A DNA stretch of 36,127 nt from Thermoplasmata archaeon (GTDB lineage Archaea > Thermoplasmatota > Thermoplasmata > Lutacidiplasmatales > UBA184), in contig JASHSX010000013.1 in NCBI GenBank assembly GCA_030040865.1, positions 1-36,127 on the forward strand, given 5' to 3'. This document shows positions 1 through 15,558 of the stretch, piece by piece. The position numbers and the translations under genes are program-made. A model generated the notes under the pieces. That model searched no databases and was not told the DNA's origin. It worked only from the letters and a program-made list of their open reading frames with translations. The first letter of the stretch is position 1. The number at the start of each line of letters is the position of its first letter.

Positions 1-3000
1 GGCCCGTCGACCGGGACGCCCTTCAGGTGGATGCGGAAGATGTCGCGCCGCGCGGCGAGGTCCGGCGGAGGCACGTAGAAGATCTTGTCGAAGCGGCCCG
101 GCCGGAGCAGCGCGGGGTCGAGGGTCATCGGCCGGTTGGTCGTCGCGATGATCATGACCTTGTCCTTCGGCCGCAGCCCGTCCATCTCCGTCAGGAACTG
201 GCTGACCGCGCGCGAGACCTCGGGCGTGCGCATCGACTCCTTGCCCGCGAGGGCATCGATCTCGTCGAAGAACACGATGGACGGGGCGTTCTCGCGCGCC
301 CGGTAGAGGACGTCGCGCACCGCGGCCTCGGACTGGCCGGCGAGCGCGCTCACGAGCTCGGGGCCGTTCACGATCTGCATCGGCACGTTGAGCTCGTTCG
401 CGGCGGCCCGCATGATGTGCGTCTTCCCGCAGCCGGGCGGGCCGAACAGGAGGATCGCGCGGCCGGTCTTGATGCGGTAGCTCTCCATGAGGTCCGGCTG
501 GGTCAGCGGGAGCTCCACGTACTCCCGGATCGCCTGCTTCGTCTCCTCGAGCCCGCCGACATCGTCCCAGCCGACCACGACCTTGCGCTCGGTCCGGACC
601 GACTGGTGCATCTTCCGCTCGTAGTCGAGCTTCATCGTCTCGTACTCCGCGATCATGCGGAGCGAGATCGACGGCTTGACGCGCGGCAGCACGGTCAGGA
701 AGTCGGCCATGGTGATCGGGGTGGTCGCGCCGCCCTCGTTGCCGCTCTCGATCTGGCGCCGGACGGCGACCGTCGCGGCCTCGCGGACGATGTTCGCGAG
801 GTCGGCGCCGCTGAACCGCTCCGTGCGCTTCGCGAGCTCCTTGAGGTCGATGTCCTTCGAGACCGGCCGGCCCGCGAGGTGCACCTGGAGGATCTCGGCG
901 CGCTCGACGATGTCGGGGGGCGGGACGTAGATGATCTTGTCGAGGCGGCCCGGCCGCATCAGCGCCGGGTCGATCAGGTCGGGCTTGTTGGTGGACCCGA
1001 CCACGATCACTCCCGACGACTTGTCGAGACCGTCCATCTCGGAGAGCAGGATCGAGAGGAGGCGCGGCGTCACGTCGTCCGCCGTGTACATGTCGCGGCG
1101 CTTGGCGATCGAGTCGATCTCGTCGAGGAAGAGGATCGTGGGCGCCCGCTCGCGGGCCGTCCTCAGCATCTCGGCGACCCGATTCTCGCTCTCCCCGTAC
1201 CACTTGCTCATCAGGTCGGAACACTTCGCGCTGATCATCTCGACGCCGAGCTCGCTCGCGAGCGCCTTCATCAGCATCGTCTTGCCGCACCCGGGGGGAC
1301 CGAACAGCAGGATCCCCTTGGGCGGGTCGAGCTTGAAGCGGGTCGTGACGTCCTTGCGCATGAGCGGGATGATCATCGACTCCTTGATGTCCGCCTTGAC
1401 ATCGTGAAGGCCGCCGACCATCTCGAACGTCACCTTGTTGCTCTGCAGGCCCTTCATCTCGGCCACGCGCGTGCCGACGGACGAGGCGCCCATGCGGCTC
1501 GTGAAGTACGACTCGAAGGCGTCCCGAATCACGAGCGAACCCGCGACGGCCGTGAACATCGCCGGGATGAACAGCAGCACGACCAGCGCCGTCCAGTTCG
1601 TGTAGCCCTGCAGCACGAAGGCGACGAGCGTGACGCCGGCCACGGTGCCGCCGCCGATCACCGACACCGAGGTCACGCGGTCGCTCGTCTGGAACGTGCG
1701 GTCCTTGAGCAGCGTCACCGCCAGCCAGCAGGCGAAGCACCAAGCGCCGATCTCGATGAGCGGGAGCGCGAGGCCCCCGAGCCCGCTGCTCCCCGCTCCG
1801 AACGAAGAGAAGTCGGGGCTGACGACGTTCGCCCACGCCGAGCCGATGCTCGTGAACGAGAAGTACGGGATCGGCAGGGTCGGGAGGAACGCCGCGGAAT
1901 GCCCGGCGATGAGGCTCGGTCGACCGGAGCCGCTGGGCCCGACCAAGTACCCCAGGACCGGGAGATTCCCCAACGTGACGAACAGCGAGATGAGGATCCC
2001 GCCGGCGACGGCGATCGCGATCCCGAGGTACAGCGAGAAGACCAAAGCGACGATGACGGGGACGACGAACGAGATCCCGATCGGCGCCAGGAAGAGCGCC
2101 AGAAAGACCCCGACGCCGAACTTGAAGTCCATCATCGCGGCGAAGAGGATCGGCAGGGCCGCGAGGAGGAAGACGAGACCCATCGCGCCCGACTGGTACC
2201 CGACCTCGGGCACGACCAGGAGCACCAGCGCGAGCAGCGAGAGCTGCGGGAACCGCCAGGCGATCAGCATCACCGCCGGGGTGATGATGAAGATCACGTA
2301 GGGCCACGGGTAGAACGGCTCGAAGAAACCCCCGAAGAGCGCGAGCGCGCCCATGACCCCGATCTCGAGAGGCTTCGGATCCTTCGTCTGAGCCCGGATC
2401 CACTTCTCGATCCGTCGCGACCAGAGGATCGCGCCGACGATGCAGAGCGCTCCCAGCGCCGTCAGGAAGTAGAAGAGGTCGTCATAGAGCGGCGCCGGAT
2501 ACGCCTGGATGTACTGGGGCCCGATCGCCACCGCGCTCGGCCCGCTCGCCCCGGTCGCGATCGCGTTGTTCGTCGCGTCGGCCTGGGCGTCGAGCGTGAG
2601 GTACGTCTGGCCGGCGTACGGCCCGCCCGGCAACTTCTGCTGGACCACCGTGAAAGTGAGCACCGCCACGTGCCCCGCCGTGATCCAGGTGGGATCGCCC
2701 TGGATGGTGGCGAAGAGGTTCGCCGCGAGCGTCGAGTACTGCGTACGTTGGGCGGGCGCGAGCGACGCGATCGACGCGAACGTGAGGCTCGTCGTACCTG
2801 TGGTCGCACTGTACTGGACCTGGCTCACCGTGTCCTTGATCACGACGGTGTCCCCGGCGGCGAGCCCGCCGGAGGTGAGGTAGACCACCGAGAGCGCGTT
2901 CGAGGTCGTCATCTTGGCGCCCGAGCTCGTCAGGAACTGCTCGGCGGTCTGGGCGTGGACCACGTCCGGATAGAACGTCCCGATGAGGGCGACCCCGGTC

Positions 3001-3335
3001 CCGGCGAGGATGATCCCCGCGAGGAAGAGCGCCCAGAACATCCGCCGTCCCGCCTCGCCCTTCTTGGGGATACGGGACGTGGGGGGACGCCGCGGGGCCG
3101 CGGCCGGTCGGGCCGGGGCCTTCGCGACCGGCTTCGCAGCCGCCGGCGTGACGGCCGCTCCCGGAGCCGCGGCCGGGGCCGTCGACGCCGCGCCGGCGGC
3201 GGTCGGCGCGCCGGACGTGGCCGACGGGACGGACCCCGAGGGCGCGGAGGTTCCGGCCGTCGACGGACCCGTCGAGGGCTGCGGCCCCGAATCGTTCGGT
3301 AGGGAGGTGCTCTGGGTCTTCGCTGCTTCGCTCAT
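1..3335 (-). CDS. Membrane-embedded tandem AAA+ ATPase (Cdc48/p97-clade modules). Ala/Pro/Ser-rich N-terminus, one TM plus a ~170-aa external domain, roughly 10 more TM segments, then two AAA domains. 3' end lies outside the window.
   Basis: Translated by hand from ATG 3335-3333 (MSEAAKTQST...), open to base 1 (1111 codons). AAA1: VTFEMVGGL, GILLFGPPGCGKT (~1278-1315), ILFLDEIDS, STNKPDLIDPALMRPGRLDK. AAA2: VGWDDVGGL, AILLFGPPGCGKT (~420-460), IVFFDEIDA, TTNRPMTLDPALLRPGRFDK. Long hydrophobic tract ~1530-2480. Confidence 0.95.
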   Translation of the reverse strand, partial: MSEAAKTQSTSLPNDSGPQPSTGPSTAGTSAPSGSVPSATSGAPTAAGAASTAPAAAPGAAVTPAAAKPVAKAPARPAAAPRRPPTSRIPKKGEAGRRMFWALFLAGIILAGTGVALIGTFYPDVVHAQTAEQFLTSSGAKMTTSNALSVVYLTSGGLAAGDTVVIKDTVSQVQYSATTGTTSLTFASIASLAPAQRTQYSTLAANLFATIQGDPTWITAGHVAVLTFTVVQQKLPGGPYAGQTYLTLDAQADATNNAIATGASGPSAVAIGPQYIQAYPAPLYDDLFYFLTALGALCIVGAILWSRRIEKWIRAQTKDPKPLEIGVMGALALFGGFFEPFYPWPYVIFIITPAVMLIAWRFPQLSLLALVLLVVPEVGYQSGAMGLVFLLAALPILFAAMMDFKFGVGVFLALFLAPIGISFVVPVIVALVFSLYLGIAIAVAGGILISLFVTLGNLPVLGYLVGPSGSGRPSLIAGHSAAFLPTLPIPYFSFTSIGSAWANVVSPDFSSFGAGSSGLGGLALPLIEIGAWCFACWLAVTLLKDRTFQTSDRVTSVSVIGGGTVAGVTLVAFVLQGYTNWTALVVLLFIPAMFTAVAGSLVIRDAFESYFTSRMGASSVGTRVAEMKGLQSNKVTFEMVGGLHDVKADIKESMIIPLMRKDVTTRFKLDPPKGILLFGPPGCGKTMLMKALASELGVEMISAKCSDLMSKWYGESENRVAEMLRTARERAPTILFLDEIDSIAKRRDMYTADDVTPRLLSILLSEMDGLDKSSGVIVVGSTNKPDLIDPALMRPGRLDKIIYVPPPDIVERAEILQVHLAGRPVSKDIDLKELAKRTERFSGADLANIVREAATVAVRRQIESGNEGGATTPITMADFLTVLPRVKPSISLRMIAEYETMKLDYERKMHQSVRTERKVVVGWDDVGGLEETKQAIREYVELPLTQPDLMESYRIKTGRAILLFGPPGCGKTHIMRAAANELNVPMQIVNGPELVSALAGQSEAAVRDVLYRARENAPSIVFFDEIDALAGKESMRTPEVSRAVSQFLTEMDGLRPKDKVMIIATTNRPMTLDPALLRPGRFDKIFYVPPPDLAARRDIFRIHLKGVPVDG

Positions 3336-3369
3336 CGTTCTTCTCGTCGATCCCGGAGAGTCCGCGCCG

Positions 3370-5190
3370 TTACCCGAGCGTCACCCTCCGTTGTTCGGCC
3401 TGGGCCTTCGCCCGTCGTTCCCGGAACCACAACACGATCGCCGGCGCCGCCACGGCGACCGCCACGAGCCCCCCGACCTCACCGGCCTGGAGGCCCGGGA
3501 CGGCCGACCAGACGTTCGAGGGAAGGGCCGACGACGCGACGTCGAACACCAGCACGGTCGGTCCGGCGCTCGACACGACGATCGCGCCGGACGGGTCGTT
3601 GCCGTAGGCCGAGATCGTCACCGAGTAGGCCCCGTAGGCGAGCGGGAACGGAGCGCTTCCCCCGCCGGGCGAGACGACCGTCGCGAACCCGAGCGGGGTC
3701 CCGACGGCGGTCTCCGACCAGCTGCCGTTCTGGATGGTGAAGTGGAGCGACGGCAGGAGCTGACCGGTCGAGAGGTCGACCGCCTCGATGAACACGAGGC
3801 CGTAGCCGGGCAGGGGCGACGTCGCCGGGCCCCCCGACTCCGAGTACGAATAGTTCCCCGAGCTGACCGCCGTTCCGAAGATGTCCTTCGCGACCACGGA
3901 GAAGGTGATCGCCCCGCCCGACGGAAGGCCCGGCAGGACCGAGTAGGAGGTGTTGGCGTCGGCCGCCGTCATGGGGAGGAGGCCCGAGAGCGTCCCGACC
4001 GCGTCGTGGTAGACGAACGCGACCGCCGCCGAGGCGATCGTCACGTTCGGGAGCGGGGAGTGGACCGTCACGTTGACGGGATCGTTCGTGGGGAGCGTCG
4101 CCGTGCCCGTGAGCACGTTCGGGCTCGCCGACAGCACGAGGTTCGCATCGAGCCCGCGCGTCGGATACCACCAGCCGCCTTGGGACGTCCAGTTGATCGC
4201 GTAGTCGCTGCTCCAGATCGGGTCGACCTCCCCGCCCGACCACAGCGACCAGGCGACGATCCGGAAGTGGAGGGTATCTCCGGCGTACGGCCCGATGGGC
4301 GCCGTCAGATTGACCACCGTCCGGTTCGACGGCGTGAAGTACTGGTTGAACGGACCGCCGGGCGTGGACCCGGTCAGGTTGAAGAACACCTCGGCGGCTC
4401 CGATCGGCGGTGGAGTGCCGCCCCCGGCTCCGATCGAGGTCAGGGTGATGTCGAGCGCCTGGTGGGCGTTCGGATCGTAGAGCGTGCCCGAGCCGATCGC
4501 CGACGGCGTGGTGCTGACGTCGATATCGTCGCCGAAGGTCGGCGTCGGCCAGGTCGACGCGACCGTGAACATCCAGGTCCAGTTGTCGACGATCCCACCG
4601 TAGTTGTACGGATTCGAGTAGGCGTTCGCGGAGCGGAGGGAGTTCGGGATCCCGACGCTCGAGTTCACCGTGACGTTGAAGTACACTTCGCTGCCGGGCC
4701 AGAAGTAGCGGAACGTGTTCAGGAAGAACGAAGCCTCGTTCGGCTGCGAGGGGGAGACGTACATGGGGAACAGGGCCGGGGTGACCGGCGAGAATCCCGA
4801 GACGGGCACCGTCTGGTTCCCCGCCGTGGGCCAGCCGGTCGCCCACAGCGCGATGTTCGCGTCCAGGATCGGTACGGTCGTCGAGAAGTTGAGCCAGATC
4901 CCCGGCGAGTCGCTCGGCAGCGTGTTCGAGCACGGCGCGATCTGGAAGGCGGAGTCGGAGAGGGCGGGATCCCCGACGACCGTGATCTGGGGCTGAAGGC
5001 TGACGAAGAAGTTCGAGGAATCCCAGGTCCCTCCGTTGGTCGGCGTGGGACACGAGGGGGCGGCTCCCGGGCTCACGGTAGCGCGCGGCCCCGCGGTCGT
5101 CGCGGACGCGCCGCCGACCGCGAGCCCCCCGAGGACCGGGATCGCGACCAGGGTCGCCACGAGCACGACCCACGCGAAACGGCCCGTCAC
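3370..5190 (-). CDS. Exported, C-terminally membrane-anchored beta-rich protein of unknown function (606 aa); paralogue of the upstream gene
   Basis: Part of track ORF 3370..5670. The GTG at 5190 overlaps the upstream TGA (GTGA) and opens a signal-peptide-like stretch (VTGRFAWVVLVATLVAIPVLGGLAVGGASA). S/T/N/P-rich body with many N-x-S/T sequons. Ends with a TM helix plus WFRERRAKAQAEQRRVTLG. Confidence 0.88.
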   Translation of the reverse strand: MTGRFAWVVLVATLVAIPVLGGLAVGGASATTAGPRATVSPGAAPSCPTPTNGGTWDSSNFFVSLQPQITVVGDPALSDSAFQIAPCSNTLPSDSPGIWLNFSTTVPILDANIALWATGWPTAGNQTVPVSGFSPVTPALFPMYVSPSQPNEASFFLNTFRYFWPGSEVYFNVTVNSSVGIPNSLRSANAYSNPYNYGGIVDNWTWMFTVASTWPTPTFGDDIDVSTTPSAIGSGTLYDPNAHQALDITLTSIGAGGGTPPPIGAAEVFFNLTGSTPGGPFNQYFTPSNRTVVNLTAPIGPYAGDTLHFRIVAWSLWSGGEVDPIWSSDYAINWTSQGGWWYPTRGLDANLVLSASPNVLTGTATLPTNDPVNVTVHSPLPNVTIASAAVAFVYHDAVGTLSGLLPMTAADANTSYSVLPGLPSGGAITFSVVAKDIFGTAVSSGNYSYSESGGPATSPLPGYGLVFIEAVDLSTGQLLPSLHFTIQNGSWSETAVGTPLGFATVVSPGGGSAPFPLAYGAYSVTISAYGNDPSGAIVVSSAGPTVLVFDVASSALPSNVWSAVPGLQAGEVGGLVAVAVAAPAIVLWFRERRAKAQAEQRRVTLG

Positions 5191-7217
5191 AGCGTCACCC
5201 GCTTCTCCTCGGCCTGCCGGCGAGACCGCACGCGCCGCCACCACGCGTACACGGGGATCGCCATCAGGCCGCCCGCGATGAGCCCGACGAGCCCCGCGAT
5301 CCCGAGCGCCCCGGTCGACGTGGTCGCCGGGGGGGCGGCCACGAGACCCGGTGGCGTGGCGTTGAGATAGAAGAGGAACGCGTTCCCTTCCTGGACCACC
5401 CAGTAGTCGCCGCCCACCTCGAGCGGTCCCCGGTTCGTGGGCACGTGCGGGATCGAGACGATGAGGCTGACGTTGCCGCCGGAGAGTCCCCCCGCGGGGA
5501 CCCAGAACGGATCGAGCACGGAGATCCGATACGTGGAGTTCGCCGGAACGATCGCGGGCGTCAGGACCTCGCCGCTCACGTTCGGGTAGGCGACGCCGTA
5601 GCTCGTCGGCGTCTCGATGTTGACCCCGTCCGAGAGGCCCGTGATCTGGACGTGGGCGCCCGAGACCCACGACTGCGTTCCGTTGTCGAAGACGTACACG
5701 TAGAAGAACGTCGCATTCCCGGGGAGGACCGGGACCAGCTCAGAAAACGTCGGGACCGAGAACGAATAGACGGACGAGACGTCCTCGTGCTGGACGAAAT
5801 CCCACGCTTCGACCGAGAAGGAGACCTGCGAACCGATCGGGAACGGCGGGATGACGCCGTTGAACACGGTCGATCGCTCGCGGACGAGGGGGAGGATCGT
5901 CGTCGCGGTCTCTCCGAGCGCCGGGTAGGAGAAGGCGATCGACAGCTGCGCGGCGAGGATCGAGGTCCCGGGGGCGATGCTCGTGAGCGTTACGGGGACG
6001 GCGACGCCCGGTGCGACCGTGGCGTTGGAGGAGGTGAGCACGGAGCCCGGCGCGACGGCCAGCGCGAGATCGTCCTGGAACACTCCGGTGCTGAAGCTCC
6101 CGTTCCCGCCGACGGTGTACGACTGCGGGGCGGTCGCGATGCGATCGTCGTAGGTGTCGTAGACGACGAACTGGTAGTCGACGGTCGCTCCCTGGATCTG
6201 CGCCCAGCTCGCCGGGAGGGTGATCGAGGTGACCGATTCGCCCGGAGCCCCGAGCGTCGAGCTCACCACCGACGAGCCGGGGAAGGTGAGGGTCTGCGCC
6301 TGGAGGACCGAGCCGTTCGGGGTGTACTCCTCCACGATCCAGTACGCGCGACCGATCGTGGCGTTGACGGGAGGCCCGTCGGCCGCGGTCGTGTTGAGCG
6401 TCGCGGTCACTGAGTCGTTCCAGTTCGGCGCCTGCGGGACGATGGAGACCCCGACGTCCTGGCTCGCCGCGCCGGACCCCGCGTACTGGCTCGAGCCCGG
6501 GTACGGCGAGTACGCCCAGGCCCCGGCGTAGGTGAACTGGAACGTGGGGCTCGTCCAATGGGTGAGGACCGATCCGTTGTACGTGTCGAACGCGATCCAC
6601 CAGGTCACGTGCATCCCCGCGTAGAAGTTGGGGGCCGAGCCGATCGCTTCCTGGGCCGTGAACTCGAGGTTGTACCAGTAGGGGTACGAGGCGTTCGCCA
6701 CCGGGTTCGCGGCGGGCCACCACCAGTGGCCGGACTTCGTCGTGTTGTCGGCGTGCCATACGTTGCCGGAGTAGACGCTGTAGTACGGGTTGCCGTTCCA
6801 GGAGACGGCGGTCACGTTGAGCTGCATGACCGAGTTGGGACCCGCCCACGGGCCCATCGTGCTGTAGTCGAGCTTCGTGTGCGACTTCACGTACAGATTG
6901 ATGTTGATCGTGGGGTTCGGCTGCGACGTGGCCACGTAGCTACCGGTCGGAGGGAGGATGTTCGGCTGGGAGGCGTTCGCCATCGAGACGCAGATCCCCG
7001 AGGCGATCGCGTAGCACGGCGGATTGTATCCGGACGACGGCGCGATCGCCGCACCCGGGTCGCTGTCCGACGCCGGGCGGGACGCGGCGCCGACCGGAGA
7101 GGAGGGGCCGGCGCCGAGGACGTACGCCGTGGCGATCAGCGTCGCGACCGCCGCAAGCACGGCGAGCCGTCCGGCGAGAGCCGAGCGACGTCCGCTGCGA
7201 TGCCGGATGCTACCCAC
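5187..7217 (-). CDS. Exported, C-terminally membrane-anchored beta-rich protein of unknown function (676 aa)
   Basis: Part of track ORF 5187..7676. GTG at 7217 has GGAGG ~10 nt upstream, then a basic plus hydrophobic leader (RRSALAGRLAVLAAVATLIATAYVLGA). Ends with a TM helix plus WWRRVRSRRQAEEKRVTL. Confidence 0.88.
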   Translation of the reverse strand: MGSIRHRSGRRSALAGRLAVLAAVATLIATAYVLGAGPSSPVGAASRPASDSDPGAAIAPSSGYNPPCYAIASGICVSMANASQPNILPPTGSYVATSQPNPTININLYVKSHTKLDYSTMGPWAGPNSVMQLNVTAVSWNGNPYYSVYSGNVWHADNTTKSGHWWWPAANPVANASYPYWYNLEFTAQEAIGSAPNFYAGMHVTWWIAFDTYNGSVLTHWTSPTFQFTYAGAWAYSPYPGSSQYAGSGAASQDVGVSIVPQAPNWNDSVTATLNTTAADGPPVNATIGRAYWIVEEYTPNGSVLQAQTLTFPGSSVVSSTLGAPGESVTSITLPASWAQIQGATVDYQFVVYDTYDDRIATAPQSYTVGGNGSFSTGVFQDDLALAVAPGSVLTSSNATVAPGVAVPVTLTSIAPGTSILAAQLSIAFSYPALGETATTILPLVRERSTVFNGVIPPFPIGSQVSFSVEAWDFVQHEDVSSVYSFSVPTFSELVPVLPGNATFFYVYVFDNGTQSWVSGAHVQITGLSDGVNIETPTSYGVAYPNVSGEVLTPAIVPANSTYRISVLDPFWVPAGGLSGGNVSLIVSIPHVPTNRGPLEVGGDYWVVQEGNAFLFYLNATPPGLVAAPPATTSTGALGIAGLVGLIAGGLMAIPVYAWWRRVRSRRQAEEKRVTL

Positions 7218-7297
7218 GGGCCTGTTCCCTCCGTCTAGCGGACCCTCGCCCCGGTGCGACCCGAGTTCCGACCGAACGTCACTTCGTCGACCTCCGA

Positions 7298-9451
7298 TCA
7301 CTCGAACCGCCCGAGCGACGGCCCCTCGACGGCCGCCTTCTCGAACTTCGATTGCATGGGACCCGCCTTCATGGCCATCTGGAGCGCGATCGGCCGATTG
7401 CGCATCATGACGCGGACGAACCCGGCCCCGAGGAAGCCGGCCGCCGTCGCCTGGAGCGAGACGTTGGCCGCGCCGACGTTCTGACCGATCCCGATCTGCT
7501 GGATCACGGGGACCGGGGCAGGCGCCGCGATCGGCAGGGCGGGTACGCCTCCCGGTGGGGGCGGCGCTCCCCCGCCCCCGGCCACGCCGGTCGGCAGACC
7601 TTGGACGTCCACGGACGCGAGCGGGAACGACTGGGTCACGACCGTGGTGTTCGTGTACGGAAGATAGTTCGCCCACGTGTAGAGGCCGTCGACCGCCGCG
7701 CTCCCGCCGACCGTGCAGAAGACAGTCGTGCAGGCGTCGACCGGGACCGTGCCGAGCGGCGGGCCGGTCGACTCGACGTTGAACGAGGCCGTCCAGGTAT
7801 CCCCGAGCTCGATCGAGTTATTGTTCGGGAACTTCGACCAGTTCCACGCGAGATAGACGAGGCTGCCCTGCTGGTGGAGCTCGCCCGGCGCGCACGCCAG
7901 GAACAGCTCGCCGTTGCGGTCGCAGGTCGTCACCAGGTCCAGGCTCGCGCCGGGCGCGAGGGCGATGTTCCCGAACGGCACGAACGTGAAGATCGGCAGA
8001 CCGGCCACCCCCTGCGCCAGGACCGTGTTCACCACGGGGCCGAATCCGATGTGGTCGATCGCATTGAGTAACCACGGATTGTTCAGATTCGGATTGTCGA
8101 GCGGTCCGTGGGGCACGAACTGGAGATTCCCCTGTTGACCGTCGGGGCACGCGAACCACGCCGGTCCGTCCCAGGAGCCTCCCGTGGCGGCGGCCATCTC
8201 GCAGCCGGCGAGCAGCACACGCTCCACGTTCTCCTGGATGATCAGCTGCGCCGTCGAGCCACCGCCGTCCGGCTCGTGGTTGGGCCACCAGCCGGGAGAC
8301 GTGGGGTCCGTCGGCGTGGTCCACAGATCGATCACGTCGATCGTGCACGTTCCCCCGATGGCGTTCGTGCACATCGGCGAGGTCCGAGCGAGCGCGGCGA
8401 TCGAGTCGTTCGGGTTGCCGTCCTGGCTCGTGATCCAGCCCTCGCAGTTCGGGCTCACCTCGCCGGAACCGAACGCGTACGACGGCTCGCAGGTCGGCGA
8501 CTGGCAGGCGGGGCTGAACAGGCTCGCCTCGGTCTGAGAGCCGCAGTAGGAGTAGCTGGCCCCGTAGTTCTCCGAGAAGCCGGGCGCCCTCGGCGCCGAG
8601 GAGGTCATGAGCACGATCACGTGGTGGGTGTTCGGGGACCAGTCGAGCCCGAACCCCTGGATCGTTCCGTACAGCTCGGTGATCATGTCGCTGTGGAGGA
8701 AGTTGTCGGCCATCCCCGAGTCGCAGTACGTCCAGCCGTTGTCGCAGGCGAAGAGGTTCGCCTTCACCTGGAGCGCGACCTGGCCGAAGTCCTGCACCGG
8801 CACGAAATCGGGAGTATCCACGTGGAAGGCCGGATCGTCCCCGTCGTCGATGTAGTCGTGGGTCGCGAACCCGTCGATGAGCGCGAACGAGACCGTGGTG
8901 TGGGGGTTCTCCGCCTGGATAGCGTTGGCGACCCGTTGAGCGTTGTACATCAGGAACTGCGGCCCGTTCGCCTCCTCGCACATCCCGTCGCTCGAGCTGC
9001 TCGTGTCGCAGATGTCGGGCCCGCACCCGCTGTAGCATCCTGCCCCGTCGTAGTTCGTCGTCTCCAGGATGAACGCGACCTGGACGGCCGGCCACGAGTC
9101 GGCGACCGGCGTCGGCGTGGCGGAGACCGTGACCCGGCTCTCCCCGGTGCCGGCGGCGCAGCTGGCGACGCCGTAGACGCAGATGCTTCCCGGGGCGGCC
9201 GAGATGCCGAGGTCCAGGTCGCCCGAACTGTTGACGGCGGGTGTGACCGACGGGCTCGAGGCCGGTGAGACCCCCGCCGATCCGGACGACGAACCCGCGT
9301 TCACGACGAGAGCGTTCGACTCTCCCATCGCCCCGACGCACAGCAGGGCGAAGATCCACCCGATCCCCAGGGCGAGGGCGATGCGACGCCCCCGGCTCCC
9401 CGGCGGTCGGATCCATCGGTCTCTCGGGCCCGGGCGCTGTGCCGACCTCAT
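7298..9451 (-). CDS. Exported Cys-rich protein with a degenerate von Willebrand factor A-like domain, Pro-rich linker and atypical C-terminal tail (717 aa)
   Basis: Part of track ORF 7298..11683. ATG 9451 overlaps the upstream TGA (ATGA). Leader RRIALALGIGWIFALLCVGAM. vWA-like strands VQVAFILETT, TVSFALID and WSPNTHHVIVLMTSSAP. About 20 Cys after the leader. The CDS is secure; the vWA call is by resemblance only. Confidence 0.8.
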   Translation of the reverse strand: MRSAQRPGPRDRWIRPPGSRGRRIALALGIGWIFALLCVGAMGESNALVVNAGSSSGSAGVSPASSPSVTPAVNSSGDLDLGISAAPGSICVYGVASCAAGTGESRVTVSATPTPVADSWPAVQVAFILETTNYDGAGCYSGCGPDICDTSSSSDGMCEEANGPQFLMYNAQRVANAIQAENPHTTVSFALIDGFATHDYIDDGDDPAFHVDTPDFVPVQDFGQVALQVKANLFACDNGWTYCDSGMADNFLHSDMITELYGTIQGFGLDWSPNTHHVIVLMTSSAPRAPGFSENYGASYSYCGSQTEASLFSPACQSPTCEPSYAFGSGEVSPNCEGWITSQDGNPNDSIAALARTSPMCTNAIGGTCTIDVIDLWTTPTDPTSPGWWPNHEPDGGGSTAQLIIQENVERVLLAGCEMAAATGGSWDGPAWFACPDGQQGNLQFVPHGPLDNPNLNNPWLLNAIDHIGFGPVVNTVLAQGVAGLPIFTFVPFGNIALAPGASLDLVTTCDRNGELFLACAPGELHQQGSLVYLAWNWSKFPNNNSIELGDTWTASFNVESTGPPLGTVPVDACTTVFCTVGGSAAVDGLYTWANYLPYTNTTVVTQSFPLASVDVQGLPTGVAGGGGAPPPPGGVPALPIAAPAPVPVIQQIGIGQNVGAANVSLQATAAGFLGAGFVRVMMRNRPIALQMAMKAGPMQSKFEKAAVEGPSLGRFE

Positions 9452-12400: not shown

Positions 12401-15330
12401 GTTGCGATGTCGAACCACGGGGTGGAGGTGACGTTGCCGGAGATCCACGGCAGCGGTTCCAAGGGCAGGACTCCCACGTCTACCGCCAACGCGACGGAGG
12501 CGTTGATGAACTCCGAGAACGGTTCGTAGCCGGGCACGGAGAGGTTCAGGTAGAAGAGGCCGGACGGGATTGACTGGTTGAAGAATCCTCCGGTGTTCGC
12601 CCCCGAGGAGAAACCGACCCCGCCGATCGCGCCGGGGCTCGTGAGCACGAACTCCGTCGCCTGCACCGCCACCCCCCACCCGGTGGAGGCGTCGACGACC
12701 CGCCCGGTGAGCCAAGCGCCCCCCGCGTTCGAAGCGGACGACGGCGCCGAAGCCGCACTCGCCGAAGCGTCCGAGGCGGTCGAATTCGCGTTCGCCCCGA
12801 CCGGCTGGAGGACGATCGGCGGAAGGACCGTCGTCTCGTTGGACGTCACGTTCGCCCAGGTCCAGTCGGTCGAGTAGCCGGACGCGGTGACCTCGATCTT
12901 GTACGTGGATCCGGGCAGCCAGCCTCCCGGGAGGAGTCCCAGGTACTGGCCCCCGGTCGAGACCCGGCCCGATCCGAGGATCGTCTCACACACCAGCTGG
13001 GCGGTGATCGGACACACGCTCGCGTGGGCGTCGAGGATCGGCTGTCCCTCCGGGTCGAGGACGAGACCGGTCAGCGTGCCGAGGGGCGTGAGAAAGATCG
13101 GTCCCACCGACGTCGTCCCCTCGCTCGAAACGTTCGCCCAGACCGTGTTGGGCGCATACCCCGATGCCGAGACGGTGATGTACCCCCACCCGGGGGGCCC
13201 CGGGACATCGAAGGTACCGTTGATCAGCGTCACGTTCGAGAAACAATTGAGCCCGTCCAGGGGGCAGATCTCCAGGGACGCGAACGGGACCGGCTCGGTG
13301 CCGCCCGCCTCCTCCACCAGTCCTGAGACCATCACCGAGCCGGTGAGATTGATCGATTGGACGTGTTCGTTGTTGGCGGTCGAGAGCGCCAGCGGGAACT
13401 GCTTCGTGTCGCAGCATAACGACTCGGTGCTGGCCCAGGTGGTGTTCGAAGCGGACTCGGCGCCGGACGCCTCGATCTGGACGGGTCCGGGGGGAGCCGG
13501 CACGCAGAACGCCGTCGCCGTGTCCACGTACGGGGAACAGTCGAACGCGCTCAGTTGGTCGACGTACGAATAGGAGACTCCCGGGGACACGGTGTAGCTC
13601 GTCGACGTGGCGGTGACGACGAACCCTCCGGGGGGCGCCTCGTTGGTACCTTGAAGGTAGACGTTGCCCGCGATGTACGTGCCGACGGGCATGGACGCGT
13701 TCACGTACGTCGTCTCGTACGGCGTCACATTGGCCCACGCCGTCGTCGGATAGACCGGGAGGTCCCCCGGTATCGGCCAGGTGGGATACGGCGGATCACA
13801 GAACGGTGTGTAGTCGGGCGTGATCAGGATGTAGTTCTGGAGCGGCAACGCGGCGAGCTCACCCGGCTCTCCGACCTGCTGGCACCCGCCCGAGATGCAG
13901 TTGGAGATGCTCGTGTTGATGACGACCTCGGTGTTCTGGATGACACCGGCCACGATCGTGCCGACCTTGTAGCCGTCCGCGCTGCAGACGCTTGCGCGCC
14001 AAAGTCCGGTGTGGAAGTCGTTCTCGAGCGACGTGACGTTCGCCTGGTCTTGCGGGTTCGAAGCGTCGTAGTCGAGACTGACGGTGAGCTGGACGGTACC
14101 CGGGGGAGTGAGGTAGAAGGCACCGAGGTTCACGACCTGGCCCGGATTCTCCTTGGCGACGAAACCGATCGACTGGGTGAGCTGGACGTATCCCTCCGCC
14201 TGGAGGATGATGTAGTCGTTGCCGGGAGGGCCGAAGGCGCTCAGTTCGCCGGTCTGGCTGGCGGCGCCCTGTTCGGCGCATTGGCCGCTGATCGAGCTGC
14301 ACACTTGGAGCGAGGCCCAGCTGCCCGAGATCAACTGCCGCGTGGCGGCGTCGTAGATGGAGGCCCGGAACGAGTCGTACGCCTCAAGGTAGATCGTGCC
14401 CAGATCCACCGAGGCCCCGGGCGTCGCATTCACCCAGGTGAAATTACCCTGAAAGGCGTAGAACGGCGACTGGAACTGGACCGTCGAGGGGACCGGCGGC
14501 ACCGCCGCGGTGAAGCTCCCGTTCTCCGTCGTCGTCCCGATCGGGGTGCCGACCTGCGTGTCGTTCAACGACGCCGAGGAGACGACCACCCCGGGGACCG
14601 GCTGAGGTATCGGAGTGTCGGTCATCACATAGCCGGTGATCGTCGCCTCGTGGACCAGGTAGGTCGTCCCGGAATAGGTCGTCGAATCGTTGGCGACCGT
14701 GGCGTACGACGTGTTGGACAGGTAGTAGTTCGCGGTGAAGACCAGGTAGTCGGTCCCCACCGGCGCGACCACGTTGAAATACCCGGTCGCGGAGGAGCTT
14801 CCGGCCACGCAGATCTGCGGGGAGCAGAGTTCCCCGCTGAGCGAGTACGCCTGCACGGCAATGCCGGAGAGTCCGAGGCGCTGCCCGATCGAGTTCGCGA
14901 CCGACGTGTTGACGAAGCCGCTGAGGCGCCCCGTGAGCTCGCTCTCGTCCTTCGTGAGGCGCGCGCTTGCCGCGGCCCGGGTCGCGTTCTCTTGGGCGGC
15001 TTCGGCCCGGAGCGCGCTCGTGACGGTCAGGTTGTGGAACTCCTCGGCCTGGGCGAGTTGCGGCGAGTTGCTGTAGACGCCCGTGGGATGCGCGCCGGGG
15101 AGCGCCGAGGAGGAGACCGGGGCACTCGGGACGGACGGGGCGGGCGCGAGCGGCGACACCGAACCGGCGCTGCCGGTCGAGGTCACGAACTCCCCGGACG
15201 GCACCGCGCTCAGCAGCATCGCCGCAGCGATCCCTACGATCGCGGCCACTTCGAACGCCATCGACCGCTCCCACCGAACCGAGGCGACCGTCCCACCCGA
15301 GGAAGAATTGTGGGAACGGAAGGCCCCCAT
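9448..15330 (-). CDS. Giant surface protein (1960 aa) of tandem carboxypeptidase-regulatory-like / prealbumin-fold repeats with a C-terminal TM anchor
   Basis: Track ORF 9448..15336; ATG at 15330 preferred over TTG. N-terminal hydrophobic segment. Recurrent ~85-95 aa unit GxxxGxV...PxxGAxV...G.F...V[S/T]AxGY...LGxIxL. Ends LLIVTAAAIGGVGATILGLRLRGRR. Confidence 0.92.
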   Translation of the reverse strand: MGAFRSHNSSSGGTVASVRWERSMAFEVAAIVGIAAAMLLSAVPSGEFVTSTGSAGSVSPLAPAPSVPSAPVSSSALPGAHPTGVYSNSPQLAQAEEFHNLTVTSALRAEAAQENATRAAASARLTKDESELTGRLSGFVNTSVANSIGQRLGLSGIAVQAYSLSGELCSPQICVAGSSSATGYFNVVAPVGTDYLVFTANYYLSNTSYATVANDSTTYSGTTYLVHEATITGYVMTDTPIPQPVPGVVVSSASLNDTQVGTPIGTTTENGSFTAAVPPVPSTVQFQSPFYAFQGNFTWVNATPGASVDLGTIYLEAYDSFRASIYDAATRQLISGSWASLQVCSSISGQCAEQGAASQTGELSAFGPPGNDYIILQAEGYVQLTQSIGFVAKENPGQVVNLGAFYLTPPGTVQLTVSLDYDASNPQDQANVTSLENDFHTGLWRASVCSADGYKVGTIVAGVIQNTEVVINTSISNCISGGCQQVGEPGELAALPLQNYILITPDYTPFCDPPYPTWPIPGDLPVYPTTAWANVTPYETTYVNASMPVGTYIAGNVYLQGTNEAPPGGFVVTATSTSYTVSPGVSYSYVDQLSAFDCSPYVDTATAFCVPAPPGPVQIEASGAESASNTTWASTESLCCDTKQFPLALSTANNEHVQSINLTGSVMVSGLVEEAGGTEPVPFASLEICPLDGLNCFSNVTLINGTFDVPGPPGWGYITVSASGYAPNTVWANVSSEGTTSVGPIFLTPLGTLTGLVLDPEGQPILDAHASVCPITAQLVCETILGSGRVSTGGQYLGLLPGGWLPGSTYKIEVTASGYSTDWTWANVTSNETTVLPPIVLQPVGANANSTASDASASAASAPSSASNAGGAWLTGRVVDASTGWGVAVQATEFVLTSPGAIGGVGFSSGANTGGFFNQSIPSGLFYLNLSVPGYEPFSEFINASVALAVDVGVLPLEPLPWISGNVTSTPWFDIATPVGHFDLAPPAQVTVCTASGVFVCSQQPVESTYLNGTGYYRVQSPSLGPMNVSAIGLGGGPYTGGGGFVFGYTIVGVNVSGQSIATFQMGDFSSYSGYVMDQTMGNGQGVRYAPVSIQVGGPGTRGGTASGPASAQGYYVLFASPYTGDPDHDGSHLIQVLATTPNAYVSGAAYYDNSSAGEPGQSIAMPTMYLEHYGYVEFRVVSSNGAPVPTPGVFSSVLATSGSYEASSGIGNQNGWVNTTAPPGDHVELLVSADSEGPFNSTTFYLNVSPSRTTFAAGGSGIHLGAIVLQSFGYTASSQVNSSSTPVLASVKDAANHQPLPNAEIDVTNSGGTSASLNPQPTNEEGQFLENAPAGEDDLLTVSHPAYESVVLALNVHPGAFTNVTSVNLTGDGVIAGQVIGYPSNAPISGALVVACSPGETICPSAESNISGDFWVAAAPGTVFVNVSATDFDSNGTELKLCSDCWQHLAGAIHLDAFASFSGLVLGLPAGYPIVGAQVQVCAAAGACFAPSLSDSAGRIVDVEPPGTYTMDVSAAGFSPASLGIVLTPGESLDLGTIFLNEFGTVEGSVVNSATRDPVVGAQVLLCGTATGASCAPQSLSDASGAFAVQGPAGASQLIVSAPGYATDFGTVGVLSGAVVTLPAPIDLVPLGQDVAYTVSGRVETASGPFGVGGSPLGGAVVALLVNGTPAFSTETGASGSFQLSASVGEYVLSIFLPGFAVLAEPMEVSSPTSLGDLLLSVQTYDVSGIVADGYTGAGLANVSIGLVAANGTWVPLATSAADGSFSTELPNGSWSIRAVPAPSSTVPYAPVTFPIQIDGAAQSLPIDLLPPQTAIYGLVADQTSGLPIVGAQVTVQGVAVDGHSVQLSFVSSANGTFRIVLPEGQYTFDASALGYVTLRQGVDATGSTGSVVLALGGMPGTSPSSGSAISLGGWELLIVTAAAIGGVGATILGLRLRGRRTRPAREARPATDEGGEER

Positions 15331-15426
15331 GGTCAACAGCGGGCGCTTCGACCACTCGGGTCCCCGCGTGGCGGGTGGACACCCCGATGAGGCCAGACGG
15401 GCATCCTCGGTTCCACACTGCGATGG

Positions 15427-15434
15427 TACATAAG
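15427..15434 (-). promoter_or_regulatory. Candidate TATA box for the surface-protein/AAA cluster
   Basis: CTTATGTA on the - strand in a GC-rich background, ~100 nt upstream of ATG 15330. Imperfect match to the consensus. Confidence 0.3.
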
Positions 15435-15558
15435 GTCTGCGAAATCCGGGCGAGCGAGACCTCGACTCTGGGCAGACTGATGACTATCCCAACGGGAAAT
15501 TGGCACAGTGTTCGTGACCTCGAGCGGAGCGGCCATGGGACCTCGCCGGTGGCTCCGG

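Follow-up and report, generated by a model that had tools for sequence, protein, structure and literature searches.

What might a Cdc48-like ATPase do when it is built into the membrane of an archaeon and encoded in one row with genes for large surface proteins? The window analysed here, a whole stretch of 36,127 nucleotides, begins with such a row. An earlier note on it had described five co-directional genes joined by ATGA and GTGA overlaps and by gaps of 80 and 34 nt, and the coordinates agree (Table 1), including its end for gene 1, which is the ATG at 15330. The ATGA overlap is formed by the gene 1 stop (9448-9450) and the gene 2 ATG (9451-9449), and the GTGA overlap by the gene 3 stop (5187-5189) and the gene 4 GTG (5190-5188). 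The 80-nt gap (7218-7297) contains GGAGGG, 9 nt ahead of GTG, and the 34-nt gap (3336-3369) lies between genes 4 and 5. No 8-mer with at least seven A/T is present in any of the four gene junctions, in line with the reported lack of an obvious internal TATA box, and the sole minus-strand oligo-T run of five or more in 1-19000 lies between an upstream propeller gene and gene 1. This placement, together with the junctions, is consistent with a single transcription unit, though not proof of one; the oligo-T is likely the end of the upstream transcript, and the spacer ahead of gene 1 is the probable start region of the cluster. The proposed operon of five genes is incomplete in the window: the window starts where the contig starts, truncating gene 5 by about 105 C-terminal codons, and a sixth gene lies beyond. 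The genome is otherwise rich in anchored surface proteins, with propeller paralogues on many contigs, and a thermopsin gene (surface acid protease) is found in the same window at 27212-30424.

Table 1. Coordinates of the cluster genes, their parts and the upstream spacer in the window.
Feature	Position	Strand	Details
Spacer 5′ of gene 1	15337..15909	-	573 nt; contains oligo-T at 15746-15750
Gene 1 (P0001)	9448-15336	-	TTG start at 15336; alternative ATG at 15330
Gene 2 (P0002)	7298-9451	-	717 aa
Gene 2, vWA-fold region	8027..9100	-	About residues 118-475; model aligned to beta-I / vWA domains
Gene 2, C-terminal segment	7301..7474	-	AAGFLGAGF hydrophobic stretch, RNRP, about 30 residues, ...GRFE end
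Gene 3 (P0003)	5187-7217	-	676 aa
Gene 3, cytoplasmic tail	5190..5249	-	...WWRRVRSRRQAEEKRVTL-COOH
Gene 4 (P0004)	3370-5190	-	606 aa
Gene 4, cytoplasmic tail	3373..3423	-	...RERRAKAQAEQRRVTLG-COOH
Gene 5, double-AAA ATPase, partial	3-3335	-	
Gene 5, N-terminal part	2466..3335	-	Head residues 1-98, TM1 100-118, ectodomain about 121-290
Gene 5, polytopic membrane core	1524..2465	-	Residues 291-604; invariant PFYPW, YQS, D403, N457, W532
Gene 5, linker from last TM helix to D1	1410..1523	-	...RDAFESYFTSRMGASSVGTRVAEMKG...
Gene 5, D1	621..1409	-	Walker A GPPGCGKT, pore loop K-W-Y-G, Walker B DEID, RPGR arginines
Gene 5, D2, partial	3..620	-	Walker A and B intact; pore loop A-L-A-G, without aromatic

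The gene 5 product had been described as a multi-TM double-AAA ATPase with its own external domain, and it does consist of an N-terminal TM helix, an ectodomain, about nine more membrane helices and two AAA modules. PF00004 matches it in two stretches (E 1.1e-84), which identifies tandem modules of the classical clade, and among solved structures it is nearest to VAT, Cdc48 and p97 (E 3.5e-128 and weaker). D1 aligns best to D2 of VAT/Cdc48; its Walker A and B motifs, arginines and K-W-Y-G pore loop do not vary among 38 sequences, and in distant clades D1 is intact while D2 is degenerate. Full-length relatives of the ATPase are 1200-1216 aa long and end in ...F-I-x-x-Y-G-T-R-x. Four of them finish in YGTRG, YGTRN, YGTRS and YGTRA, each with Arg as the penultimate residue, and across 38 sequences the Y, G, T and R hardly vary. 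The HbYX motif is defined, in the excerpt of the source consulted, as a small or hydrophobic residue, Tyr/Phe and any residue at the extreme C-terminus (PMC3493965); the ...YGTRx ending of this family is thus not a proteasome-activating HbYX.

The part ahead of the AAA modules resembles little that has been classified. In residues 1-640 nothing matches a Pfam family at E <=5, and the membrane core has no NCBIfam match at E <=0.1. The head (residues 1-98) is disordered, rich in Pro/Ala/Ser/Thr and cytoplasmic. The ectodomain is beta-rich; Foldseek returned only weak OB-fold-like rows (E 0.2-1), and no homology to the gene 4 family is detectable. A search with the membrane domain recovered just 53 representatives in 1.84 billion proteins, and among ten representatives of the polytopic core that were scanned six carry PF00004 and one a KaiC-type ATPase. 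Solved folds gave no clear match to the membrane domain, the model of which contains low-confidence stretches: Foldseek found none at E <=0.001, and the best VIA alignments, those to RibU (3p5n_B; Z 9.6, rmsd 4.6 A, 144 residues) and to other S components of ECF transporters (Z 7-8.5), fall under the helical-bundle noise level of the tool. The linker leading to D1 has a mean top-residue frequency of 0.84 and is modelled as one long helix leaving the membrane.

Gene 1 encodes a giant repeat surface protein (1962 aa from the TTG, about 1960); it begins with a signal anchor, and near its C-terminus a TM segment is followed by a basic tail. The repeat stalk proposed for it takes the form of CarboxypepD_reg in seven stretches (Pfam, E 1.3e-57), with further PEGA and SpaA-type prealbumin-like matches. 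The products of genes 3 and 4 are likewise exported and are anchored C-terminally, their TM-like segments lying at residues 18-36 and 638-656 (gene 3) and 8-26 and 571-589 (gene 4). N-x-S/T sequons are approximately threefold enriched in all three proteins, with 44 observed against 14.7 expected in gene 1, 17 against 5.9 in gene 3 and 14 against 5.6 in gene 4; the signal anchors and this enrichment point to an outside location of the partner proteins. A sixth conserved surface-protein gene (PKD) follows the ATPase gene in 33/33 close loci. The C-terminal tails of the gene 1 homologues and of this downstream protein are unconserved.

The gene 2 product is also exported. It possesses an N-terminal signal anchor and 21 Cys. 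Its vWA fold lies within a beta-sandwich; a Pro-rich stalk and then a hydrophobic segment rich in Gly follow, and the cytoplasmic end is conserved. No Pfam family, VWA included, and no NCBIfam family matches it, and none of its 296 homologues has a name. The predicted model (AlphaFold, pLDDT 71.7) nevertheless contains a Rossmann-like vWA/beta-I domain, as expected for the Cys-rich vWA-like protein that had been suggested. Foldseek gave 126 matches to this model at E <=0.001, among them the solved structures of PitA (7w6b, E 1.9e-10), SpaC (2e-9), Mfa5 (4.8e-8) and integrin beta3 (4.3e-7), and VIA aligned it to integrin beta8/beta6 with Z 15.0 (rmsd 3.1-3.6 A, 206-212 residues). The vWA part precedes the C-terminal hydrophobic segment and, judged from the sequence, is predicted to lie outside the cell. 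Its MIDAS site does not read as the canonical D-x-S-x-S; the family has E130-T131-T132-x-Y-D135-G136, in which E130 and G136 are invariant and T131, T132 and D135 near-invariant. At the other end of the protein, G-[RKHG]-[FWVML]-[EDG] closes 28 of 29 homologue tails.

That genes 3 and 4 encode two paralogous anchored proteins with a common tail is supported by BLASTP (E 6e-6), by hhalign of gene 3 against the gene 4 family (probability 97.9, E 5e-13, 387 columns) and by the near-invariant cytoplasmic ending ...RR[VI]TL that both share. At about 16 residues the tails are short, and they are prone to form helices. A C-terminal [KR][VI][TS][LV] is present in 40/40 gene 3-like rows, the stop of the L047 row being common with a gene 4 row, and in 40/43 gene 4-like rows; the mean top-residue frequency in gene 4 is 0.83 for the tail versus 0.60 for the ectodomain. 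Among the 5584 frames of at least 150 aa in the genome, the combination of TM segment and tail ending is restricted to genes 3 and 4. An interface between ATPase and partner is weakly predicted. Gene 5 (residues 95-910) with gene 4 (470-606) scored 0.56, against 0.00 for the best of three controls, and across the runs at least 77% of contacts agree, with partner pLDDT of at least 61. The mark was passed by 58 of 80 solved complexes and by 2 of 110 mismatched pairs; both of those mismatches, and seven of the 80 solved complexes, passed with scores of <=0.60. At scores like this one, passes are false more often than true without a high prior, and the prediction points weakly to contact.

The gene order that the earlier note expected around homologues of the ATPase membrane domain does recur. 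In 46 close loci, taken from one genome per species and counted upstream wherever the flank sufficed, gene 4 is present in 31/31, gene 3 in 28/28, gene 2 in 21/24 (absent in three) and gene 1 in 22/24; the same order is found in all six congeners examined separately. Across the conserved loci the partner proteins are just 35-50% identical. These counts are inflated by shared ancestry, because the loci all come from one phylum and mostly from one order, and in a second group of loci genes 1 and 2 were not found in five of eight. The cluster is restricted to some Thermoplasmatota, its gene order recurring in Lutacidiplasmatales-type Thermoplasmata; the ATPase family is narrow and patchy, occurring in 35 of the 301 genomes sampled from the phylum and in 0/36 and 0/35 of two well-sampled families. 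The host of the present locus, an uncultured archaeon of acid soil or peat, is itself of the Lutacidiplasmatales type, which agrees with the Thermoplasmata assumed in the earlier note.

More distant Thermoplasmatota carry fused forms. There the N-terminal ectodomain of the ATPase is homologous to the gene 4 family, as hhalign reveals for P0267 (probability 95.4, E 2e-8, 303 columns) and P0268 (96.7, E 4e-10, 318 columns), and the fused proteins share the polytopic core with gene 5 (hhalign E 4.1e-56). In loci L099 and L109 the gene 4-type ectodomain is split from the ATPase again. A vWA-protein gene lies immediately upstream in 13/16 distant loci, and P0269, the distant counterpart of gene 2, reaches 46.4 bits with Pfam VWA (cut-off 23.8). 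The partners are tied to the motor by three links: the common tail, the gene 4-type fusion and the upstream vWA gene of distant loci.

We tentatively favour the view that the cluster encodes a dedicated envelope complex in which the motor takes hold of the partners' tails. Its centre would be a hexamer-type double-AAA unfoldase of the Cdc48/VAT clade, the hexamer being assumed from the family, in which a membrane module (TM1, ectodomain, TM2, polytopic core) replaces the soluble N domain; with the module in that position, the D1 ring and its K-W-Y-G loops would sit directly beneath the membrane. The gene 3 and gene 4 products would most likely serve as fixed outer subunits, docked via the TM helix and the ...RR[VI]TL tail, the same outer ectodomain being covalently part of the ATPase in other lineages. 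Since the fused forms indicate that a gene 4-type module can belong to the ATPase permanently, they argue against the products of genes 3 and 4 as threaded clients. The vWA protein, which has a conserved ...GRFE end of its own, the gene 1 product and the downstream PKD protein may form an adhesive or capture surface. We surmise that the motor grips the cytoplasmic tails of anchored partners and pulls, an action by which it would extract the surface assembly, retract it or turn it over, much as membrane proteins are dislocated by FtsH, Msp1 or Cdc48 in ERAD. Against this reading speak the unconserved tails of the gene 1 product and the downstream PKD protein, the lack of an aromatic residue in the D2 pore loop, the absence of a protease gene from the neighbouring stretches examined and a C-terminus other than HbYX, as well as the loci in which gene 2, or both genes 1 and 2, are missing.

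A bolder form of this proposal, which we regard as unlikely, would make the ATPase a dislocon plus motor in a single polypeptide, the core and the Cdc48-type rings reeling a polypeptide from the outside to the inside. The vWA/Ig-like assembly would then be an ATP-driven retractable adhesin, pulled in by its conserved tails, or, alternatively, captured extracellular protein would be imported. Were this true, the cluster would be a functional counterpart of pilus retraction made from unrelated parts, and a prokaryotic membrane-integral analogue of Hrd1/Derlin-Cdc48 retrotranslocation.

The fusion of a gene 4-type ectodomain to the ATPase would also suit a fixed machine of another sort, namely a stable transmembrane adhesion and mechanotransmission complex, in which the ATPase, with no threading, uses ATP-driven movements passed on by TM helices and tails to switch the outer vWA/Ig-like assembly from one state to another, as in MacB/FtsEX-type mechanotransmission or the inside-out activation of integrins. 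The beta-I-in-hybrid-domain topology of gene 2, known from integrin beta and tip adhesins, and its conserved cytoplasmic end would agree with such a complex, as would the short, helix-prone tails and the degenerate D2 of distant clades. However, AAA rings of the classical clade that keep the aromatic pore loop intact are known to act as polypeptide translocases, and D1 has such a loop; the MIDAS of gene 2 is non-canonical, and we know of no AAA+ protein that works purely by mechanotransmission to an ectodomain. On balance this explanation, too, is improbable.

It is decidedly unlikely that the ATPase is a general quality-control unfoldase for membrane proteins, standing in for FtsH/Msp1 in archaea and maybe feeding a protease, with neighbours that are non-specific. 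The succession of TM, ectodomain, TM and AAA recalls FtsH, the FtsH_fam and PAN models of NCBIfam match the AAA part under their cut-offs, the genome encodes many anchored surface proteins (the propeller paralogues and the thermopsin among them), and the gene 1 and downstream tails lack conservation. Against this, the gene order is kept despite partners so divergent in sequence, other lineages join a gene 4-like ectodomain to the ATPase, the tail motif is limited to genes 3 and 4 in the genome, and the patchy distribution of the family would be odd for a housekeeping function. The Pfam lists of the full-length relatives include no protease domain, and these proteins have no HbYX.

An export or assembly motor, by which the ATPase pushes or chaperones giant and Cys-rich partners across or into the membrane (compare Bcs1) or builds a surface fibre from them, is very unlikely. 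Its clients would be unusually large (1960 aa, about 1280 aa) or Cys-rich, the modelled polytopic core could be a conduit, and predicted archaeal secretion loci, in the portion of the source consulted, pair vWA and Ig-like proteins with an AAA+ ATPase, although one of the MoxR clade (PMC5898192). The pore loops, however, would meet a substrate from the membrane side only for inward movement, and each of the four partners starts with a signal anchor of the ordinary N-terminal kind, so that Sec export suffices. Least probable of all is a protein-import (feeding) machine, whose outer proteins would capture polypeptides for the motor to reel inward through the polytopic core: the orientation of the motor, the use of peptides by the order and the surface acid protease gene in the window would suit it, but the model bears no sign of a wide enough pore, the conserved partner tails would be without a role, and no precedent for such a machine is known to us. 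The peptide use in question is described, in the part of the source consulted, as serving organoheterotrophic growth (PMC9287336).

The locus offers a testable system. Its motor is defined, its polytopic domain represents a new family, two tail motifs are the expected docking sites or handles, and natural fused and split forms tell which parts belong together. AAA+ unfoldases tethered to the membrane, FtsH, Msp1 and Bcs1 among them, play a central part in the turnover of membrane proteins, and to our knowledge archaea are generally without FtsH. A motor that extracts anchored proteins would bear on the pre-eukaryotic beginnings of Cdc48-driven dislocation and on how abundant uncultured archaea of acid soil and peat build and remodel their surface. 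The literature searched describes no Cdc48-clade protein that is integral to the membrane and has surface partners dedicated to it.

Nor did that literature yield a published description of the gene cluster, and in the searches of Pfam, NCBIfam and PADLOC it matches no characterised system; a membrane-integral Cdc48-type ATPase beside anchored surface proteins is a combination without a described counterpart. In NCBIfam at E <=0.1, genes 1-4 gave nothing besides a chance SusC row. Comparison with known anti-phage defence (PADLOC) returned only generic AAA rows for the ATPase (IetA, TRIP13, others) and none for genes 1-4. As an operon it resembles the arCOG01314 secretion system, one of the predicted archaeal loci for which the consulted part of the source lists an AAA+ ATPase together with a vWA/Ig-like secreted protein and with membrane proteins that are Ig-like and of S-layer type (PMC5898192; Makarova, Galperin and Koonin 2015). 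According to the same part, its ATPase is a soluble MoxR/GvpN-type protein (COG0714), whereas here a Cdc48-clade double AAA is joined to a polytopic domain; no flavodoxin-like arCOG01314 protein was seen at the cluster. The best families of gene 5 are PF00004, CDC48, PAN and FtsH, and the MoxR-clade AAA_3 is not in the best 25 of 43 Pfam matches. A MoxR-vWA pair would share one compartment, while the gene 2 vWA is predicted to be extracellular.

In its vWA domain inserted into a beta-sandwich, gene 2 resembles PitA, SpaC, RrgA, GBS104, Mfa5 and integrin beta (VIA Z 11-15), with only 6-14% sequence identity to these tip adhesins and integrins. It further resembles integrin beta in the succession of vWA, stalk, TM-like segment and conserved cytoplasmic end. 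The five proteins contain no Gram_pos_anchor/LPXTG signal and match no sortase family, which leaves a likeness of fold to the sortase-assembled pilus tip adhesins; the conserved motif stands after the TM segment at the C-terminus and not before it, unlike that of archaeosortase substrates (PGF-CTERM and kin).

Among membrane-bound AAA proteins, MBA has been reported from thermoacidophilic Crenarchaeota. Sulfolobus MBA forms, in the excerpt of the source consulted, a membrane-bound archaeal cluster separate from Vps4, PAN, AMA and CDC48 (PMC3493965). By this description it is like gene 5 in being an archaeal membrane-bound AAA protein. Msp1 pulls on the short cytosolic ends of anchored proteins; Msp1/ATAD1 and Bcs1 share with gene 5 a membrane-tethered AAA ring acting on membrane proteins, but have a single TM and a single ring, without operon partners, ectodomain or polytopic core. 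FtsH likewise places TM, ectodomain and TM ahead of a membrane-held AAA ring, and its partners HflK and HflC are two paralogous single-pass proteins with large outer domains, as the gene 3 and 4 products are two paralogues with large outer domains. Gene 5 differs by at least eight additional TM helices and by its pair of AAA modules, it scores 410.2 bits with FtsH_fam against a cut-off of 600, and the M41 protease (PF01434) is absent from the Pfam lists of the full-length ATPase relatives; the partners differ from HflK/HflC in being anchored C-terminally, and they are not known to be SPFH proteins.

With Cdc48, p97 and VAT, the soluble double-ring unfoldases of which Cdc48 works with Hrd1/Derlin in ERAD dislocation, gene 5 shares two classical-clade AAA modules with Walker motifs and arginines intact. 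Its score with the CDC48 family (NCBIfam TIGR01243) is 493.2 bits against a cut-off of 802.65, for a query that is about 105 C-terminal residues short. In place of the N-terminal double-psi barrel and beta-clam of CDC48/VAT, the model has TM helices and a small beta-rich ectodomain, so that a polytopic membrane module stands where the N domain would be. The aromatic pore loop is in D1 and not D2, and the C-terminus of the family is ...YGTRx and not HbYX. Finally, membrane conduit and motor would here be a single polypeptide.

A membrane-integral ATPase of the Cdc48 clade and a set of exported, anchored partner proteins form a conserved module. In the window it appears as five minus-strand genes (genes 1-5), the last of which, encoding the ATPase, is cut by the start of the contig (C194; assembly of 1.75 Mb in 205 contigs, ~80% complete). 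The ATGA overlap (9448-9451), the GTGA overlap (5187-5190) and the gaps of 80 and 34 nt, from which the earlier note had proposed a five-gene operon, are all seen in the sequence. No AT-rich 8-mer was found in the four junctions between genes 1 and 5, and the sole minus-strand oligo-T run of at least five within 1-19000 (15746-15750) lies past the upstream propeller gene and ahead of gene 1. As read from the sequence, this layout would be compatible with a single transcription unit. Bacterial consensus searches, which are uninformative for an archaeon, gave one promoter-like site (0.9 expected) and six terminator-like sites (6.1 expected). When four peat-metagenome runs were compared with positions 1-4000, one X1 record continued 655 nt beyond the left end, with no difference; in the contigs of these runs the AAA-coding part is broken up over numerous related variants, none of the listed pieces covering it whole.

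Coordinates of the cluster, its neighbors and related features in other contigs and loci
Feature	Location	Strand	Product or remark
Gene 1	9448-15336	minus	P0001, 1962 aa; the earlier note took the ATG at 15330 as start
Gene 2	7298-9451	minus	P0002, 717 aa
Gene 3	5187-7217	minus	P0003, 676 aa
Gene 4	3370-5190	minus	P0004, 606 aa
Gene 5	3-3335	minus	P0005, 1111 aa, cut by contig start
Propeller gene upstream of gene 1	15910-18936	minus	1008-aa YNCE/NHL beta-propeller surface protein, C-terminal anchor
Thermopsin-family acid protease	27212-30424	minus	1070 aa, PF05317 E 2.6e-50
Second ATPase copy (L113)	G000:C126:19174-21489		residues 445 to end; window counterpart 3-2003
Two surface proteins downstream of second copy	G000:C126:11131-18768	minus	~1220-1280 aa each, anchored
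Congener ATPase (L031)	G010:C2:182268-184141		N-terminal part matched as three pieces in different frames
Distant fused ATPase P0267	L092:8756-12910
Distant giant Ig-repeat protein P0270	L111:162-7313

The propeller protein has paralogues on many contigs of the same genome, and the fetched flanks of congeners contain no strong (>=150 bits) match to it. The thermopsin-family protease carries C-terminal CarboxypepD_reg/PEGA domains; a surface protease of this type is compatible with an acidophile performing extracellular protein digestion. Other window genes, read as amino-acid biosynthesis, specify two kinases (one an amino-acid kinase that carries a chorismate-mutase domain, the other of the GHMP family), a PLP-dependent enzyme and an Asp/Orn carbamoyltransferase; a further gene specifies a prephenate-dehydrogenase-like protein. 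No signs of mobile elements were found in the window, the remainder of which is ordinary chromosome. Its GC content is 66-72%, and the organism fits Lutacidiplasma as published (~69% GC, ~2.1 Mb; PMC9287336).

The product of gene 5 begins in the cytoplasm with a disordered head (residues 1-98) and crosses the membrane through TM1 to a beta-rich ectodomain (~121-290). TM2 then leads into a conserved polytopic core that extends to residue 604, and a 38-residue linker, likewise conserved, connects this core to two AAA modules, the membrane-proximal D1 and D2; the multi-TM double-AAA ATPase with its own external domain described in the earlier note is thereby upheld. Walker A, Walker B and the arginines are retained in both modules, and the pore loop reads K-W-Y-G in D1, where it is invariant, and A-L-A-G in D2. 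The closest solved relatives are VAT (E 3.5e-128), Cdc48 and p97; the protein falls under the CDC48 family cut-off (493 versus 802.65 bits), and the Cdc48 N domain is absent. Proteasome docking was considered and rejected, the full-length relatives ending in ...F-I-x-x-Y-G-T-R-x with no HbYX motif. For the membrane part no family was found in Pfam (E up to 5) or NCBIfam (E up to 0.1), and Foldseek returned nothing from the PDB at E up to 0.001. The best VIA matches were ECF S components, at a Z of at most 9.6, which lies under the tool's noise level for helical bundles and may be due to chance. The small ectodomain gave weak OB-fold Foldseek matches (AspRS, RPA, SSB; E 0.2-1) and no homology to the gene-4 family by hhalign (probability 0.5).

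A word-indexed search with this membrane part returned 100 proteins. Every one derives from a metagenome bin of Thermoplasmata or 'Candidatus Lutacidiplasmatales', and the names given at source go no further than 'AAA family ATPase' or 'transitional endoplasmic reticulum ATPase'. When 1.84 billion representative proteins were searched exhaustively with a profile, just 53 proved to carry the membrane domain, 35 of them at E up to 1e-30. Ten of the 53 were scanned, six having PF00004, one a KaiC-type ATPase and three no listed ATPase; among these ten, the polytopic core accompanies a ring ATPase wherever a partner domain is seen. The membrane module may be paired with differing ring ATPases. In the 557-aa protein P0310 the match to the core is weak but library-wide significant (E 3.1e-8), and in place of an AAA module the C-terminal half holds an ATPase of KaiC/RecA type (PF06745, E 6.4e-35). 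An even sample of the phylum, in which 'not found' differs from 'absent', gave matches in 35/301 genomes (16/214 of high quality), and their distribution is patchy: 4/5 in the window's family, 18/24 in another, 0/36 and 0/35 in two others.

Gene 1 matches CarboxypepD_reg in seven stretches (E 1.3e-57), with further PEGA and SpaA-type matches; with a signal anchor at the N-terminus and a TM segment at the C-terminus, its product contains 44 N-x-S/T sequons where 14.7 are expected. Genes 2-4 belong to no family in Pfam (E up to 5) or NCBIfam (E up to 0.1). The earlier description of gene 2 as Cys-rich and vWA-like is borne out by its 21 Cys and by its AlphaFold model (42 homologues, pLDDT 71.7), which predicts a beta-sandwich with an inserted vWA fold. 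The top Foldseek matches of this model are PitA (E 1.9e-10), SpaC (2e-9), a Catenulispora vWA protein, Mfa5 (4.8e-8) and integrin beta subunits (from 4.3e-7), and VIA-align against integrin beta-I domains gave Z 15.0 and an rmsd of 3.1-3.6 A over 206-212 residues. Since its MIDAS position reads E-T-T-x-Y-D-G, this site is non-canonical. ESM Atlas leads placed gene 2 with VWA/tip-pilin clusters (0.87), as the fold search later confirmed, and gene 4 with Ig-like/CarboxypepD_reg clusters (0.79). Genes 3 and 4 both specify signal anchors and C-terminal TM helices, with sequons enriched about threefold (17 versus 5.9 and 14 versus 5.6 expected, respectively). That they are paralogous anchored proteins with a shared tail, as had been claimed, is confirmed by BLASTP (E 6e-6) and hhalign (probability 97.9, E 5e-13, 387 columns reaching the very end). 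Relatives number 296 for gene 2 and 40 for gene 4, every named one being labelled hypothetical.

The earlier note proposed recurring synteny around ATPase homologues as a check, and the gene order does recur. It is found as 1-2-3-4-5 in 6/6 congeners fetched with flanks; the tally behind this includes one unpublished genome (G019), which contributed nothing else. A one-genome-per-species scan yielded 75 loci, which were sorted by ATPase identity; counts refer to loci with sufficient flank, and the downstream PKD gene was scored if on the same strand and within 3 kb. Among the 46 close loci, gene 4 is present in 31/31, gene 3 in 28/28, gene 2 in 21/24 (missed in L040, L057 and L059), gene 1 in 22/24 (missed in L051 and L058) and the PKD gene in 33/33. 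The corresponding values for ten 'second' loci are 9/9, 9/9, 3/8, 3/8 and 2/8. As the partner proteins are only 35-50% identical across loci, the order has outlasted considerable divergence, though the loci are all kin. The downstream gene encodes a ~1280-aa PKD/InlB-B-repeat surface protein. In L040, L057 and L059 no gene-2 homologue is detectable between genes 1 and 3, and L058 and L110 have 2.6-4 kb inserted between genes 2 and 3. The L031 ATPase gene is either frameshifted or affected by long-read assembly errors.

The same assembly holds a second membrane ATPase copy on contig C126 (74.6% protein identity to the window copy), truncated by the other end of that contig, inside the gene. This copy may mark a second full locus; no second copy of genes 1-4 is found in the assembly. 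Downstream of this paralogue are two more surface proteins bearing both PKD domains and divergent InlB B-repeats, the gene for the first of which is the one kept behind the ATPase in close loci; it is not visible in the window because the contig ends there. The database protein P0008 (1216 aa) is identical to the window copy over its first ~810 residues and to the C126 copy over the rest, and therefore either one assembly is chimeric or recombination has occurred.

In the upstream flanks of 19 distant loci tblastn detected none of genes 1-4; weak gene-3/gene-4 matches in L092, L103 and L109 cover a fused ATPase ectodomain or a split ectodomain gene. The ATPases of the distant loci are ~1290-1390 aa long. 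The extra N-terminal ectodomains of two of them, P0267 and P0268, align with the gene-4 family (hhalign probability 95.4, E 2e-8, 303 columns, and 96.7, E 4e-10, 318 columns reaching into the TM helix, respectively) and are followed by the same polytopic core (E 4.1e-56). A natural fusion thus links a gene-4-type ectodomain with the ATPase; L099 and L109 show the split form, with the ectodomain encoded on its own immediately upstream of a shorter ATPase. In 13/16 distant loci the directly upstream gene encodes a protein of ~467 aa in which Pfam recognizes a VWA domain (46.4 bits, cut-off 23.8) and which has a short motif in common with the gene-2 family (hhalign probability 96.3, only 36 columns). 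This gene usually adjoins one for a giant protein of Ig repeats (14 Big_7 stretches, and Big_13). From the close and distant loci together, a core emerges that recurs across the phylum: the polytopic ATPase, the gene-4-type ectodomain either fused to it or free, a surface protein of vWA type, and giant repeat proteins. By sequence reading, the distant ATPases keep all motifs in D1, and their D2 lacks the Walker B acid or the Walker A Ser/Thr; the membrane-proximal D1 ring is therefore the conserved motor. The giant Ig-repeat protein P0270 has a cytoplasmic tail of ~150 residues past its TM helix. Such tails in distant loci contain a helix-hairpin-helix/RNA_pol_A_CTD-like domain (E 5.2e-6), a nucleic-acid-binding type of domain on the inner side of a surface protein, and a conserved end, ...LMxSVMDAELPSDK[DE]; the L092 and L094 ATPases end in a similar Lys-rich helical motif.

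Three partners bear dedicated conserved cytoplasmic ends. In the families of genes 3 and 4 the tails are near-invariant, the TM helix being followed by W, a basic cluster, A-E-A-E-Q-like residues and [KR]-R-[VI]-T-L-COOH. The ending [KR][VI][TS][LV] occurs in 40/40 gene-3-like sequences (that of L047 duplicating a gene-4 entry) and in 40/43 gene-4-like sequences, the exceptions being L073, whose frame ends differently, and L092 and L103, where a weak match lies inside the fused ATPase gene. It also occurs in the second group, where the ectodomains are only 25-30% identical, and conservation in gene 4 is 0.83 for the tail versus 0.60 for the ectodomain. Among 5584 long frames of the genome, only genes 3 and 4 combine a TM segment with this type of ending. 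The ending ...G-[RK]-[FW]-E is shared by 28/29 gene-2-like proteins. No conservation was found among the tails of gene 1 homologues or of the downstream PKD proteins. Interface prediction with custom alignments of ATPase residues 95-910 and gene-4 residues 470-606 gave a score of 0.56 (runs 0.57, 0.56 and 0.22; best of three controls 0.00), with contact agreement of at least 77% and partner pLDDT of at least 61. The mark used is reached by 58/80 solved complexes and 2/110 mismatched pairs, scores of 0.60 or less comprising just 7/80 solved complexes and both passing mismatches; the predicted interface is thus weakly supported.

We tentatively suggest that genes 3 and 4 form fixed outer subunits, docked via TM helix and tail, of a motor that pulls anchored clients by their cytoplasmic ends. 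Going by what is established for classical AAA proteins, the ATPase would assemble as a hexamer and thread polypeptide, from the membrane-facing side, through a D1 pore ringed with aromatic loops. It would grip the ends of the vWA protein and perhaps of the giant repeat proteins, and the surface assembly would thereby be extracted, retracted or turned over. Against tail pulling, neither gene 1 nor the downstream protein has a conserved tail, no protease or HbYX link is seen, and D2 has no aromatic loop. A complex for mechanotransmission or adhesion, in which nothing is threaded, is unlikely, and a general quality-control unfoldase that happens to lie within a surface-protein island is distinctly so. 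That the ATPase drives export or assembly is improbable, and import of polypeptide, one of the activities first proposed, is very improbable.

For a motor pulling on anchored clients, FtsH, Msp1 and Cdc48 in ERAD are closest in proposed working, and the cluster belongs to none of them. Features that define CDC48, FtsH, HbYX activators, MoxR-vWA pairs, sortase pili, archaeosortase substrates and PADLOC systems were sought in it and not found, PADLOC giving generic AAA matches only. In the literature searched no published description of this system was found, in line with the earlier remark that it matches no recognizable archaeal pilus, archaellum, bindosome or ESCRT locus. The nearest prediction in that literature is the arCOG01314-vWA-MoxR archaeal 'secretion system', whose ATPase is soluble and of a clade other than that of gene 5 (PMC5898192). 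Set against the systems compared here, the cluster resembles membrane-bound AAA+ unfoldase systems, and its membrane-domain family and partner set appear to be new.
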